Source: a virus
Virus genome (UHGV): UHGV-0102868
Length of the DNA stretch: 34,597 nt
Strand: one strand, 5' to 3'
Under the pieces are notes generated by a model. It was not told the origin of the DNA and did not search any database. It saw only the letters and a program-made list of their open reading frames with translations. This document shows, piece by piece, positions 4,448 to 10,528 of this stretch. Each line of letters starts with the position of its first letter. The first letter of the stretch is position 1. A program made the translations under genes and the position numbers.

Positions 4448-5026
4448 ATGAGAGACATTGATGTAAGAAAGGCTGTGCATGCCAAGATTCTGAGAGATCA
4501 TCATAAAGATCCTGACACCCTAATCATTGATGAGTTTACGATGAATCTAGGGGCTAGCAGAGCTGATATAGCAGTGATCAATGGGCTTATACATGGTTAT
4601 GAGTTGAAGAGCAAGAGTGATAACTTGCTCAGATTACCAGCGCAGGTGCAACATTACTCATCAGTGATGGATAAAGTAACTTTGGTTGTCTCTGATTGCC
4701 ATCTTTATGATGCTTTAAGCATAGTTCCATCATGGTGGGGGATAAAGCAAGTTACGCAAGGTGCACGGCAAGGTATCCATTTAAAAACAATTCGAACTAG
4801 CAAGTTGAATCCACAAGTGGACAAACTTTCCTTAACAATGCTTCTTTGGAAAGATGAATTGCTTTCCCTATTAAGTGATGTAGGGGAGCTACAGAATTTG
4901 AAAAATAAACCTAAACGCGTCTTATGGTCAAAACTCGCCAATAGTATGGATGTTGGCGAGCTTCGTGAAGCTGTTCGAGTTAAACTTAAAGCCCGTAAAG
5001 AGTGGCGAGTTGCTCAACAACCTTAG
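4448..5026 (+). CDS. uncharacterised protein, possible PD-(D/E)xK nuclease-fold (ORF-A)
   Basis: 192-aa ORF in visibly AT-rich DNA. Translation has D28/E29, D40 and E52-x-K54 (IIDEF ... RADIAVI ... YELKS), spaced like a restriction-endonuclease-type active site. An extended -10-like TGTTAAAAT lies upstream (4327-4335). Confidence 0.6.
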   Translation: MRDIDVRKAVHAKILRDHHKDPDTLIIDEFTMNLGASRADIAVINGLIHGYELKSKSDNLLRLPAQVQHYSSVMDKVTLVVSDCHLYDALSIVPSWWGIKQVTQGARQGIHLKTIRTSKLNPQVDKLSLTMLLWKDELLSLLSDVGELQNLKNKPKRVLWSKLANSMDVGELREAVRVKLKARKEWRVAQQP

Positions 5027-6083
5027 TTATGTGATGGTTTTGCCCAATCCTACGCCATACCTCTGGGCTACCAAATTTATAGTTACCAGAGGGATTGGCT
5101 TTGTAGGCTTGATACTCGTTTGCATAATATTCTATGTCTCTATCTCCCGCACAGAATGTAGGCCCTGAATATTCTCGATGAGCAAGAATATCCTCACTAT
5201 GTTTACCATATTGTTCATAACCAAAGCGATTAGCTACTCTTCCTCGAAATACCCAAAAGTCATTATCTCCAGAGTATCTGACGCTGGCAGATACGCTAGG
5301 GAATCGCGTCGAAAGCCTATTAAAGTCGGGGTGCTGTACTCCATAATCACTATAAATCACATTTCTGGCAAGTTCTTTTCTATTCATTAAACTCTGCCAT
5401 AAAATCCACTCGATTCGAGGTTGAGAATATAGACCAACAGAAATATCACTGAGATCTGTAGGAAATGAACCCCCAGAAAGAATCACTTTTCTGTATTCAT
5501 TGAGGTGCGCCAGATTGTTTATCAATCCCATTGCCAAAGTATATAGTTCGCCGGAATTAAGTTTATCCTCGGTTAACTCATCTCTTAAGTCAATAATTAT
5601 ATCAATATTTGATAAAGGAATTCCTAGATGATTAATGTAATGCGTTATTAATTGTGGGTTAACCAGATCTAACGTGGTTAATCTCAAGCATATTTCATTC
5701 TGCATTAATTCATCAATCGCTCTTTTATAGTTAGATGGGCGAGTTGGTGAACTGACAGGAATAACTCTTATCCCCATATCTCTAACTTGATTAACCGCAT
5801 TTATTATAGGGTAATGATCTTCAGGAGAAATAAAATGCTCTTCAATTAATAATCCATCAATATAAACACCTTGCATATCTGAGCAAGATTTTGAGACTTT
5901 CTTTCCGAACTCTATAAGAGTCTCGTTATAACTCTTTAAGGCAATACCTGAATCAGGGTCAATTGGCACTGGTTCAATTTCGAGTAATGGCAAAATTTTT
6001 GATTTCTTTTCAATGGATAGCTGCGATAAAGCTGATAACTCAGAACGTTTCGCTTTCAGAATAGGAATATATGAAATTGCCAT
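4986..6083 (-). CDS. uncharacterised 365-aa protein (ORF-B), convergent partner of ORF-A
   Basis: Long uninterrupted minus-strand ORF, the only convincing minus-strand gene in the window. AT-rich. Its 3' end overlaps the ORF-A 3' end by 41 bp. No motif I can name with confidence. Confidence 0.7.
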   Translation of the reverse strand: MAISYIPILKAKRSELSALSQLSIEKKSKILPLLEIEPVPIDPDSGIALKSYNETLIEFGKKVSKSCSDMQGVYIDGLLIEEHFISPEDHYPIINAVNQVRDMGIRVIPVSSPTRPSNYKRAIDELMQNEICLRLTTLDLVNPQLITHYINHLGIPLSNIDIIIDLRDELTEDKLNSGELYTLAMGLINNLAHLNEYRKVILSGGSFPTDLSDISVGLYSQPRIEWILWQSLMNRKELARNVIYSDYGVQHPDFNRLSTRFPSVSASVRYSGDNDFWVFRGRVANRFGYEQYGKHSEDILAHREYSGPTFCAGDRDIEYYANEYQAYKANPSGNYKFGSPEVWRRIGQNHHITKVVEQLATLYGL

Positions 6084-6464: not shown

Positions 6465-6639
6465 TGCTGCGGGTGCTTGAGGCTATCTGCCTCAGGCATG
6501 AACACCAAAGGCAGATAGAGAAAAGCCCCAGTTAACATTACGCGTCCTGCAAGACGCTTAACATTAATCTGAGGCTCAATCCATGCTGAACACATGTAGG
6601 TTAGCCTCTTACGTGCCGAAAGGCAAGGAGAAGCAGGCT

Positions 6640-6795
6640 ATGAAGCAGCAAAAGGCGATGTTAATCGCCCTGATCGTCATCTGTTTAACCATCATTGTGA
6701 CGGCACTGGTAACGAGGAAAGACCTCTGCGAGGTACGAATCCGAACCGGCCAGACGGAGGTCGCTGTCTTCACAGCTTACGAACCTGAGGAGTAA
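6640..6795 (+). CDS. hok: Hok/Gef-family type I toxin
   Basis: 51-aa product MKQQKAMLIALIVICLTIIVTALVTRKDLCEVRIRTGQTEVAVFTAYEPEE is a typical Hok/Gef membrane toxin (closest in my memory to HokD/RelF). RBS AAGGAG at 6624-6629. Confidence 0.85.
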   Translation: MKQQKAMLIALIVICLTIIVTALVTRKDLCEVRIRTGQTEVAVFTAYEPEE

Positions 6796-6884: not shown

Positions 6885-7025
6885 TAATTGATAAAAAAAT
6901 TAACCAAAATGGTTTACATAAAATTCCTTTATGGTAAATTGATTCGCATGTAAGGGGGGAGCACACTACCGATCATACCCTCAACGAGCGCGCTCTATTA
7001 CTGACACTAAACTGAGGAATTACCT

Positions 7026-7379
7026 ATGGCACTCACTGAATTCGGTAAGGCCGTGAGAAAAGCGAGAATTGATACAGGTTATACACTTCTTACCATGGCA
7101 AAAGCATTGGGCACCACACCAGCTTTCTTGAGTGGGCTTGAAACTGGAGCAAAAAAGATTCCAGCAAAATGGGTTACGGCAATAAATGATTTACTTGCTG
7201 AGCAAGGGTACAAAATTGAAAACCTGGATTTGTTAGCCAATATTTCAAATGAGTCAATACCTGTTGAAGGTTTACCCTTGCAGCAACAGATGTTGGTTGC
7301 AGGATTTGCTAAATCAGAATTCACACATGAAGAATTGAAAAAGTTCGCTGAGCTTTTAGCGGAAATCAATAAGAAATAA
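7026..7379 (+). CDS. XRE-family helix-turn-helix transcriptional regulator
   Basis: N-terminal HTH-like segment (TGYTLLTMAKALGTTPAFLSGLETG); RBS GAGGA 7 nt upstream; the next gene starts 16 nt after its stop. Confidence 0.75.
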   Translation: MALTEFGKAVRKARIDTGYTLLTMAKALGTTPAFLSGLETGAKKIPAKWVTAINDLLAEQGYKIENLDLLANISNESIPVEGLPLQQQMLVAGFAKSEFTHEELKKFAELLAEINKK

Positions 7380-7395: not shown

Positions 7396-7878
7396 ATGTA
7401 TCAAATGCGAGGGACAAGAGTCCAGCCATTAACCGAAATTGACATCAAAAACAAAGCTATAAATGCCTGTTTTGCTTTGGGATTTACAAGCAAGTATAAA
7501 TACCGTAGGCGTCCGAAGAGATTTGATATTGCTTTAGAAAAGCTGTCAGAGTGGAATATTGTTTTGGAGCCTATTGATGAGGCTGATTGGCTGGGACTTA
7601 CTCTTGGCTTAACCATTGGACATTGTGAGCCAGAGACATTGACAATAAGAGTGCCAAACCATATTTATGAAATGGCTTGTGCAGGAGAACGTAGTGCTTT
7701 ATTTGTTGTTTTTCATGAGTTAGGTCATTTGCTTCTTCAGCATAAACCAGCACTGCATTTTTCAAATACCCCACCGGAGCAAAACGAAGACTCTGAGTGG
7801 CAGGCTGATTTATTTGCAGATGTGATGTTGGAAAAATTAGGATATGAAACAGCACAACTTTGCTTCGATTTTTATTAA
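7396..7878 (+). CDS. ImmA/IrrE-family Zn metallopeptidase (HEXXH)
   Basis: Translation contains FHELGHLLLQH (HEXXH) in a 160-aa protein directly downstream of an XRE HTH gene, the usual ImmR/ImmA-type arrangement. Confidence 0.75.
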   Translation: MYQMRGTRVQPLTEIDIKNKAINACFALGFTSKYKYRRRPKRFDIALEKLSEWNIVLEPIDEADWLGLTLGLTIGHCEPETLTIRVPNHIYEMACAGERSALFVVFHELGHLLLQHKPALHFSNTPPEQNEDSEWQADLFADVMLEKLGYETAQLCFDFY

Positions 7879-8000
7879 AAAGCCCTGCAATAGCAGGGCT
7901 TAGATTCGGAAAGCCTAGGAAACTTTCCTGTGTATGATGGAGATCCCCACCGCTACACTTAGAATTGACAGAAGTGAGTCTAGCGGTTCTCTCAATAAAT

Positions 8001-8028
8001 TGCAACCTGTATGGGGATACAGGTTGCA
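8001..8028 (+). repeat. perfect 12-bp inverted repeat with a 4-nt GGGG loop
   Basis: TGCAACCTGTAT-GGGG-ATACAGGTTGCA read directly; it sits just upstream of the RBS and start of the small Zn-ribbon ORF. Confidence 0.7.
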
Positions 8029-8044
8029 GGGAGATGCTGTTGTT

Positions 8045-8194
8045 ATGGCTATGAAAACTTGTAAGAAATGTGGGAAACCGTGTGAAATTATTTTTCGTTA
8101 CTCTGCCTGTATCAACGGAGTTATGCGGTATGCGAGAAAAGGGCATCCTTTTCCGATTCCTGTCTGCGATTGCTCTGAACTTGGTGTCGCATAA
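8045..8194 (+). CDS. small Cys-rich (zinc-ribbon-like) protein, 49 aa
   Basis: ATG 8045 with RBS GGGAGA (8030-8035); CKKCGKPC ... CDC motifs; followed by a terminator. The ORF-track start at 7934 would read through the inverted repeat. Confidence 0.4.
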   Translation: MAMKTCKKCGKPCEIIFRYSACINGVMRYARKGHPFPIPVCDCSELGVA

Positions 8195-8202
8195 TGATCT
8201 AA

Positions 8203-8226
8203 AACCCGCTTTGGCGGGTTTTTTAC
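8203..8226 (+). terminator. rho-independent terminator closing the accessory island
   Basis: CCCGC-tttg-GCGGG hairpin followed by TTTTTT. Confidence 0.55.
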
Positions 8227-8386
8227 TTTTACAGATCAAGTTTTAGCCGATTCCTCCATTAAACCGACCTTCGTTTGTTGATAAGCGGGTATGCCTGACT
8301 AGAATCGATTCACTTAAGTAGCGCGCAGGGAGAAGAGGGATGGACCCCGAGCAGGGGAGTGCTATTTATCTGGAAGGATTCTGTTG

Positions 8387-8560
8387 ATGAAAATCGAAGA
8401 ATTGCGTGAAATTTTTAGTGAAAATGGCCTCTATGCTGTGCGCGTTGAGAATGGAGACGTTATCTACACAACGTTAATTCCTGATGATCATGTGATTTTA
8501 TCTATCGAGGCATTCATTGAATATCTGGAAAGGCTCGGTTTCAAGGTGGTTCGGGAATGA
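8387..8560 (+). CDS. small hypothetical protein (57 aa), absent from the ORF track
   Basis: ATG 8387 with RBS GGAAGGA 9 nt upstream; 57 sense codons ending TGA 8558-8560. Confidence 0.35.
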   Translation: MKIEELREIFSENGLYAVRVENGDVIYTTLIPDDHVILSIEAFIEYLERLGFKVVRE

Positions 8561-10374: not shown

Positions 10375-10450
<76 letters not shown>

Positions 10451-10453
10451 TAT

Positions 10454-10528
<75 letters not shown>

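Follow-up and report, generated by a model that had tools for sequence, protein, structure and literature searches.

In plasmids of the I-complex (IncI1/IncIalpha, IncB/O and IncK) and of the IncL/M group, a hairpin loop in the repZ/repA leader pairs with a distant segment near the ribosome-binding site (RBS) to form a pseudoknot, and a short cis-encoded antisense RNA (Inc RNA or RNAI) is complementary to one of the two pseudoknot partners (PMC8053102). Single loop bases set the specificity of these systems and diversify between relatives (PMC10724649). Here we analyze a leader in the UHGV virus genome UHGV-0102868 whose control logic, by analogy, is closest to that of these rep genes. The window (the whole analyzed stretch of 34,597 nucleotides) is a lambdoid prophage stretch from the metagenome contig ENA ERZ1744965 NODE_69. 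The element in question is a palindrome at positions 8001–8028, upstream of a small open reading frame (ORF) for a 49-residue, Cys-rich protein. We favor, with somewhat better than even confidence, the reading that this palindrome corresponds to helix H4 in a conserved 5′ leader RNA of ∼165 nt (helices H1, H2, P3a/b/c and H4), which contains a pseudoknot and most likely acts as a translation switch. The unannotated 350-bp stretch holds two candidate new families, a covariation-supported pseudoknotted RNA absent from Rfam 15 and a small Cys-rich protein. If the reading is correct, antisense and pseudoknot control, described mainly for plasmid replication, extends to phage accessory genes.

The prophage leader shares with the rep leaders a hairpin-loop pseudoknot near the RBS (H4 ends directly at the Shine-Dalgarno (SD) sequence), and a putative antisense RNA over one of the partners is predicted here. 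The two are not related in sequence or through Rfam, and they reside in different replicons, plasmids in one case and prophages in the other. The gene under control is a Rep initiator in the plasmids, whereas it encodes a 49-residue Cys-rich protein here. The plasmid antisense RNA covers the hairpin loop, while the predicted prophage antisense RNA would cover the internal-loop strand. For the prophage leader, we infer both the antisense RNA and an activating role of the pseudoknot. The plasmid systems also have a leader peptide, whereas the prophage leader has no conserved translatable one. A peptide starting at AUG 7937 (AUGGAG) was considered and rejected, as it has no usable SD and its frames are not conserved; this AUG is ACG or AGG in 3 of 57 leaders, and the short frames that follow vary in length and sequence. 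Rfam 15 returned no family at the gathering score for positions 7875–8230 of the window or for 20 homologous loci. Relaxing the threshold to E≤10 yielded only matches of at most 20 bits that were driven by terminators, and STnc180 and isrJ were discarded as homologs because their alignments rest on terminators. We also searched the literature for the peptide motifs and for an RNA motif in the vicinity of M78/DUF955 genes, with no result.

When phage records and complete E. coli genomes were searched for near-identical DNA, matches were confined to the Rem-like part downstream. A DNA search in distant mode located the element in 7 of 5426 complete E. coli genomes, at 72–83% identity, and the PGAP annotation of these seven genomes contains nothing at the element. 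E. coli STEC005 (NZ_CP041437) is an example of a strain with the module. A pattern scan for the hairpin gave 10 viral loci. With the protein as the sole query, we retrieved 5 genomes from other genera, 35 metagenome loci and 66 viral loci, a set whose selection is independent of the hairpin. More than 100 homologous loci were collected in total, most of them via the protein alone, and the leader alignment comprises 57 distinct leaders.

The leader structure was derived as an RNAalifold consensus, to which the pseudoknot and some extensions were then added by eye and counted. RNAalifold recovers H1, H2, P3a, P3b and H4 from the 57 leaders. In the full structure, 91.5% of cells are paired, compared to 29–48% with slid partners; compensatory change is seen in 23 of the 49 pairs, and none of 500 shuffles reaches the observed values. 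H4 alone is paired in 92.8% of cells, with compensatory change in 5 of its 10 pairs. Pair 155–172 is C-G in 23 leaders, U·G in 25 and U-A in 4, and pair 160–167 is A-U in 47, G·U in 8 and G-C in 2. In Alteromonas, the H4 stem (CGCAAAUUUUUA...UAAGGUUUGCG) is wholly different, with the loop unchanged. Elsewhere in the leader, P3b pair 87–132 is found as GC (32), AU (16) and GU (8), P3a becomes GGUUAACC/GGUUAACC in loci L052 and L053, and H2 has compensatory change in 8 of 9 pairs, its stem being wholly replaced in Erwinia and Alteromonas. The H1 stem (GCCCUG/CAGGGC) is invariant in all 57 leaders, and the loop of the long irregular hairpin H3 holds a conserved UUGACA (7965–7970). An extra minus-strand helix, GUGUA/UACAC, is not conserved. 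Since G·U pairs outnumber A·C in P3a (40:0), H4 (37:3) and the pseudoknot (22:0), these three are, as judged from the alignment, structures of the plus-strand RNA.

The pseudoknot connects the loop of H4 to an internal loop of H3 located 65 nt upstream. Compensatory change is observed in 5 of its 6 pairs, and 94.2% of cells are paired, compared to 6–62% when slid; again, none of 500 shuffles reaches the observed values. The combination of internal loop and H4 loop is AACCCA/UGGGUU in the consensus leaders, AAUCCA/UGGAUU in L055 and others, AAUUCA/UGAAUU in L092, AACUCA/UGAGUU in L042, AGUUCA/UGAACU in L049 and CACCCA/UGGGUG in L095. The diverged loci L043, L044 and L047 contain unrelated pseudoknot pairs at the equivalent places (GGUCUC/GAGACC, GGACAC/GUGUCC and AGCCCUU/AAGGGCU), and the pseudoknot is also retained in Alteromonas and Proteus.

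A sequence-only reading had drawn attention to the palindrome, TGCAACCTGTAT-GGGG-ATACAGGTTGCA, as a perfect inverted repeat unlikely to arise by chance. The palindrome is real, with 12-nt arms and a 4-nt loop, and a scan found it to be the sole perfect hairpin with 12-nt arms and a loop of 3–8 nt in the 34.6-kb window. Its origin by chance is improbable, with 0.013 such hairpins expected per window in 150 first-order Markov simulations and 0.012 analytically. The 2-nt gap claimed before the SD is absent, since GGGAGA starts directly after the palindrome. At the homologous loci, the hairpin is kept, but the perfect dyad is specific to the window allele: in the closest relatives, the 3′ arm of H4 is interrupted by a single bulged nucleotide, and the loop consists of 6 nt in most relatives. 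Because the relatives are bulged and the helix covaries, the perfect dyad is an allele-specific extreme of a conserved RNA hairpin. By comparison with these relatives, loss of the bulge together with an extra U-A pair renders the H4 of the window unusually stable and perfectly palindromic; the extra pair, which lies across the loop, is a side effect of the pseudoknot covariation.

The perfect dyad, its improbability by chance, and an HTH (helix-turn-helix) gene 650 bp upstream had also suggested a DNA operator bound by a dimeric regulator, such as the adjacent HTH protein. This proposal did not hold up, and we regard a DNA operator as very unlikely. The 1-nt bulge breaks the dyad in relatives, and the changes in the arms are compensatory through G·U, which fits one strand only and leaves no conserved half-sites. 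Moreover, the H4 loop covaries with a distant segment. A second copy of the half-site was not found in the window, where half-sites recur at the level of chance (4 further two-mismatch matches versus 2.9 expected). The hairpin is also kept behind unrelated upstream genes (HicAB plus a 146-residue protein, or a 200-residue HTH-like protein plus a 304-residue protein), while HTH proteins with 99% identity adjoin quite different leader alleles. Since the dyad is not kept, the neighbors vary, and alleles differ beside near-identical HTH proteins, an operator for the neighboring HTH protein is excluded. A more natural candidate for the HTH operator is the inverted repeat TTACAT...ATGTAA that flanks the likely promoter of the HTH and M78 peptidase genes (TTTACA, TG-extended TAAATT) at 6913–6950. 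It is nearly as improbable that H4 and the adjoining AUUUAUUG act as a minus-strand intrinsic terminator for transcripts from the ORF side. A terminator scan does flag the minus strand, and a U-rich CUUUGUUG is located next to the hairpin in many homologs. However, the U·G at pair 155–172 in 25 of the 57 leaders is a C·A mismatch on the minus strand, H4 is paired at 92.8% on the plus strand versus 86.8% on the minus strand, and a covarying pseudoknot has no role in a terminator.

In the sequences collected, the leader and the ORF always travel together, usually behind a gene pair for an XRE-type HTH protein and an M78 peptidase. When viral contigs were scanned with a leader-only pattern, every true leader was followed by the ORF. 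A free-standing functional RNA (a ribozyme or a trans-acting RNA) that shares its transcript with the ORF might account for the elaborate fold, the conserved loops and the otherwise unexplained repeated tops of H1 and H2 described below. We consider this improbable, as every leader found is accompanied by the ORF, H4 directly adjoins the SD in most members, and no known ribozyme or small RNA family matches.

The arrangement at the start of the ORF is instead consistent with the translation switch that we favor. The sequence-only reading had offered, as a second proposal, an RNA stem-loop that occludes the leader of the small ORF and controls its translation. H4 is indeed an RNA helix in the leader. 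However, the SD is not inside the hairpin, which is one helix of a larger leader, and the predicted occlusion of the SD comes from a separate CUCC/UCUCUC strand stacked on it. Both the minimum free energy (MFE) and centroid folds of the window pair UCUCUC (7988–7993) with GGGAGA (8029–8034), stacked on H4, and the probability that the SD is unpaired is 0.01 in the window under nested folding. The anti-SD partner is the same in the MFE structures of 22 of the 56 other leaders. Homologs have AGGGA or AGGAG at the equivalent SD place.

In the proposed mechanism, three segments would compete: an upstream GGAG, CUCC and the SD. In the ON state, CUCC would pair with the upstream GGAG, P3a and the pseudoknot would form, and the SD would be free. 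In the OFF state, CUCC would pair with the SD, the resulting helix would stack on H4, and no translation would take place. The pseudoknot would favor the P3a state with its free SD. The unit of leader and ORF would be transcribed by read-through from the upstream HTH-M78 genes, whose transcription can read into the leader since H1 is U-poor on the plus strand. Two candidate plus-strand promoters were examined and rejected. The invariant TTGACA, taken as a −35 element, has no −10 element at 16–18 nt, and a start there would leave out the covarying strands of P3a and the pseudoknot. The TGGAGA-16-TAGAAT of the window is not conserved and would likewise exclude these strands.

A promoter-like element is located on the opposite strand, ∼75 nt upstream of H1 in the minus-strand direction. 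The pattern TTGNNN-17-TANNCT occurs on the minus strand of all 57 leaders, with TTG, T1, A2 and T6 invariant and a spacer of exactly 17 nt. The element is also present in Alteromonas and Proteus (TACAAT), and TTGAUA/TTGAAA-17-TACCUU/UAUGGU was recognized by eye in a diverged subfamily. The plus-strand CAA and TA, complements of the antisense hexamers, are invariant even where their pairing partners are lost. As for H1, its stem is followed on the minus strand by at least five U in the next 8 nt at 45 of 49 unique loci (mean 5.5), versus 1 of 49 on the plus strand (mean 3.0). It thereby has the GC-rich hairpin and U-tract of a Rho-independent terminator on the minus strand. An antisense RNA of ∼95 nt would start at this putative minus-strand promoter, the −35 element of which overlaps the left arm of the palindrome, and would terminate at H1. 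Its predicted fold (−37.9 kcal/mol, z=−5.1) has an open 5′ half, followed by H2′, the H1′ terminator and a U-tail; the consensus fold keeps only H2′ and H1′. In the leader, this RNA would be complementary to P3a, P3b/c and the pseudoknot, in each case to the 5′ strand. By pairing with the leader, it would disrupt both the pseudoknot and P3a, so that CUCC would become free to bind the SD and the ORF would be silenced. On sequence evidence, an antisense RNA apparently takes part in control of the leader. A second promoter-like sequence, TTGATA-17-AATAAT (10/12), is found on the minus strand at 8087–8115, in antisense orientation inside the small ORF. The closest E. coli relatives retain it and SC476 does not, so it is probably fortuitous.

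A purely cis-acting leader (riboswitch-like, protein-binding or thermosensing) would need no antisense RNA, with the minus-strand signals as by-products and H1 ending stray antisense transcripts. We give this explanation a minor share of the probability. It is in keeping with the multi-helix pseudoknot fold and its conserved unpaired bases (GUAUGGAG, UUGACA and AACAAA), with the predicted alternative pairing of the SD, and with the overlap between the antisense hexamers and structured positions. However, it does not account for the exact 17-nt spacing with invariant TTG and T1/A2/T6 in every leader, for CAA and TA remaining invariant where pairing partners vary, or for the asymmetry of the H1 U-tracts (45/49 versus 1/49), and no ligand or binding protein can be named for it.

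Several observations weigh against the switch that we favor. The aligned sequences are related and the structure was partly derived from them, such that the shuffle and slide controls overstate significance. The MFE predictions do not take the pseudoknot into account. The SD is a weak one (GGGA) with a 10-nt spacer to the ATG, and the anti-SD:SD helix is short (4–6 bp); covariation provides no check of this pairing, as GGAG, CUCC and the SD are each under constraint. No plus-strand promoter was found for the leader, so that read-through of H1 is assumed. H2 (15 G·U versus 23 A·C) and P3b/c have no clear strand signal. The antisense hexamers overlap bases that are paired in the plus-strand RNA, and their conservation may be partly structural. 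The antisense promoter of the window scores 8/12 and is not listed by a consensus promoter scan. Finally, distant members of the family have a different or simple leader (Vibrio L174, Mu-like L179, L050 and L119).

In the Mu-like phages (L179/L180, 2347–2760), the gene immediately precedes mor, and a simple hairpin in front of it, UCCUC...GGAGGA, sequesters its SD. In Vibrio (L174, 2280–2650), it adjoins a divergent brxR-like gene, and its leader differs. This family of small proteins may repeatedly be controlled by occlusion of translation.

The tops of H1 and H2 (loop plus top pairs) are identical within most leader alleles and change together between alleles. The shared tops include UGCGCUAACA twice, CUGAGAA twice, CUGCAAA twice, CUUCGAA twice and UGUUGACGCA twice, and were seen in L013, L031, L066, L092, L095, L018 and others; L092 has the same single-base change in both tops. 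All 7-nt tops read C-U-NNN-A-A. The window is an exception, with CAAUAG in H1 and CUAGGAA in H2. Several roles for these loops were considered and rejected. As c4-like antisense elements against a nearby target, they have no complement within 2.5 kb or near the RBS. The small protein, the HTH protein and the M78 peptidase are not suitable as loop binders, as identical or 98–99% identical proteins occur with different loop types. A link of the loop triplet AGG to phage tRNAs fails because the tRNAs are Thr(UGU) and Gly(UCC).

In the immI region of phages P1 and P7 (c4 RNA-icd-ant), a structured phage RNA also precedes a small ORF on the same transcript, and the c4 loops pair with sites at the icd RBS. 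The common features are the structured RNA before a small ORF and short, covarying allele-specific elements, which would confer a heteroimmunity-like specificity. The c4 system differs from the present leader, whose H1/H2 loops lack such a complement, and Rfam c4 gave no match even at E≤10. By analogy with antisense systems, the tops of H1 and H2 would represent kissing loops, whose allelic diversity would limit cross-talk between co-resident prophages.

Features of the leader, the small ORF and the upstream gene pair. Positions are those of the window.
Feature	Position	Strand	Remarks
XRE-type HTH gene	7026–7379	+	117 residues; Pfam HTH_31/HTH_3 E=1.4e-4, below curated cut-offs
M78 (ImmA/IrrE-like) metallopeptidase gene	7396–7878	+	160 residues; Peptidase_M78 26.8 bits, cut-off 22
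Predicted antisense RNA	~7970 to 7875	−	~95 nt; start inferred
H1 hairpin	7880–7901	−	AAGCCCUGC-AAUA-GCAGGGCUU; terminator-like on minus strand, U5 tract 7879–7875
H2 hairpin	7908–7928	not assignable	GGAAAG-CCUAGGAAA-CUUUCC
H3 hairpin	7939–7993	+	long, irregular; RNAalifold consensus
P3a	7939–7943 with 7988–7992	+	GGAGA with UCUCU; 40 G·U, 0 A·C
Pseudoknot 5′ strand	7943–7949	+	AUCCCCA; 5′ internal loop of H3
P3b	7950–7955 with 7981–7986	+	CCGCUA with UAGCGG; within H3
P3c	around 7957–7960	+	within H3
−10-like element	7977–7982 (read 7982–7977)	−	TAGACT; 17 nt from −35
Anti-SD	7988–7993	+	UCUCUC; 3′ strand of P3a; CUCC in consensus
−35-like element	8000–8005 (read 8005–8000)	−	TTGCAA; overlaps left arm of palindrome
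H4 hairpin (palindrome)	8001–8028	+	conserved RNA helix
Pseudoknot 3′ strand	8012–8018	+	UGGGGAU; H4 loop and flanking bases
Shine-Dalgarno sequence	8029–8034	+	GGGAGA; 10-nt spacer to ATG 8045
Cys-rich basic protein gene	8045–8194	+	49 residues; MAMKTCKKCGKPCEIIFRYSACINGVMRYARKGHPFPIPVCDCSELGVA
Intrinsic terminator	8201–8228	+	closes the small unit; hairpin 8201–8222 and T run

The small ORF had been described as a Cys-rich frame with CxxC...CxC motifs, closed by a terminator, and both points are borne out. Its Cys residues are at positions 6, 9, 13, 22, 41 and 43, and the ORF is followed by the terminator hairpin and its T run; a hairpin and T run also follow most of the homologous ORFs inspected. 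The homologous loci encode 54 distinct variants of 46–50 residues that share the motif C-x2-CG-x2-CE-[IV]-IF...[KR]KG-x2-FPIP-x-C-x-C. C6, C9 and C13 are invariant, C41 is nearly so, and C43 is lost in several distant members. Column entropy summed by codon position 1, 2 and 3 is 20.0, 15.7 and 56.5, and synonymous codon differences exceed non-synonymous ones. The pattern of codon variation indicates that the ORF is a genuine protein-coding gene, kept as such across relatives, of an unannotated family. A profile search found 38 database clusters (Yersinia, Proteus, Vibrio and Alteromonas), all named "hypothetical" and none with a Pfam domain. Overall, the family is present in prophages of the gammaproteobacterial genera Escherichia, Citrobacter, Kluyvera, Kosakonia, Lelliottia, Erwinia, Yersinia, Proteus, Vibrio and Alteromonas.

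Public gene calls contain an 86-residue ORF instead (7934–8194; cluster P0001, 72 contigs), and a single-sequence protein search matched only this mis-started cluster. The N-terminal extension traverses the structured leader, and its frame is open in only 12 of the 63 unique sequences upstream of the gene. Because it is open in so few, the true start is taken to be ATG 8045. A small gene missed or mis-started by gene callers in this way bears on the annotation of small proteins.

An AlphaFold2 model built from a 34-sequence alignment is a five-stranded, all-beta structure (predicted local distance difference test score, pLDDT, 79) with pairs of Cys at two turns. We read the small protein as zinc-ribbon-like and probably zinc-binding. 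It shares with small zinc-ribbon proteins the two Cys knuckles (an N-terminal CxxC and a C-terminal CxC) and the predicted beta fold, but has no significant match in sequence or fold to solved structures or Pfam. Comparison to solved and viral predicted structures gave no significant match except for a mis-annotated member of the family; the top-ranking PDB entries, although not significant, are subunits with a zinc ribbon (for example, Rpb9 and RpoM). Searches of Pfam, PHROGs, NCBIfam and PADLOC identified no credible family for the 49-residue protein. Matches to PADLOC MTase_II and phrog_35666 were dismissed as noise, and the restriction-alleviation Lar family, considered as a lead, showed no significant match.

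A small ORF with a long structured leader that can sequester the SD and a short antisense RNA directed at or overlapping this leader, as predicted here, is also the arrangement of type I toxin-antitoxin systems (hok/sok, symE/symR and tisB/istR-1), which likewise reside in prophages; a hok/sok copy is located 1.2 kb upstream in the window. A related module, with the protein as growth inhibitor, the antisense RNA as antitoxin and the leader keeping the mRNA inert, would fit the predicted SD sequestration and cis-antisense RNA. It would also fit the moron-like positions beside hok/sok, HicAB, BstA and PD-Lambda-2-like genes. We nevertheless think this unlikely. The protein is basic, Cys-rich and predicted to be all-beta, without a hydrophobic helix, unlike nearly all type I toxins, which are hydrophobic membrane peptides. 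It has no similarity to toxin families in Pfam, NCBIfam or PADLOC, and the leader RNA has no homology to toxin-antitoxin RNAs.

Pairs of HTH and M78 proteins (ImmR/ImmA, DdrO/IrrE and CapH/CapP) de-repress target genes after DNA damage (bioRxiv 10.1101/2022.04.27.489752). The pair upstream of the leader has the same architecture of XRE-HTH protein and HExxH M78 peptidase, the peptidase carrying an HELGH motif. Its PADLOC matches are weak (capH, E=4e-4; capP, E=1e-4), and the 160-residue peptidase of the window is too short for the C-terminal GAF domain present in CapP and IrrE. The stop codon of the M78 gene (TAA, 7876–7878) abuts H1. The XRE-HTH gene is present upstream in about two thirds of the homologous loci, and the synteny of the HTH-M78 pair with the small ORF holds from Escherichia to Proteus and Alteromonas. 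This synteny suggests that the small ORF is the tightly controlled output of an HTH/M78 sensor of the DNA-damage type, making it a candidate output gene for the widespread HTH-M78 sensor pairs of prophages. A broader reading, which we put forward only tentatively, is that of a new and self-contained cassette in prophages of gammaproteobacteria, in which a pseudoknot-gated leader and a convergent antisense RNA with allele-specific H1/H2 kissing loops would control a new zinc-ribbon family, the silenced output of HTH/M78, as an effector or toxin module.

The gene order in the window is hok/sok, XRE-HTH, M78, the element, a Rem-like gene, DUF1367, YbcO, Q, two tRNAs, lysis genes and structural genes. 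The order hok, HTH, M78, small ORF and Rem is conserved, and the left neighbor varies. The hok/sok copy directly upstream of the HTH-M78 pair (6471–6795) is complete, with an Rfam sok match of 118 bits and a Hok/Gef ORF. Further to the left, a gene on the minus strand (4986–6083) resembles Beta_protein/PD-Lambda-2_C (E=1.5e-41) and is located beside an sce7726/P4 cII-like gene (4448–5026). In sister contigs, the slot corresponding to 4448–6083 holds BstA (KilA-N plus BstA_C) or a DUF4325 gene, and looks like a hotspot for defense genes. Just past the terminator of the small ORF, a strong promoter-like sequence, TTGATA-16-TAGAAT (8278–8305), precedes a 57-residue Rem-family ORF (8387–8560; phrog_340, PF27490 in sister contigs), which forms a second small stand-alone unit. 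The tRNA-Thr(UGU) and tRNA-Gly(UCC) genes (10375–10528) are located downstream of the Q gene, where Stx-type phages carry tRNA genes.

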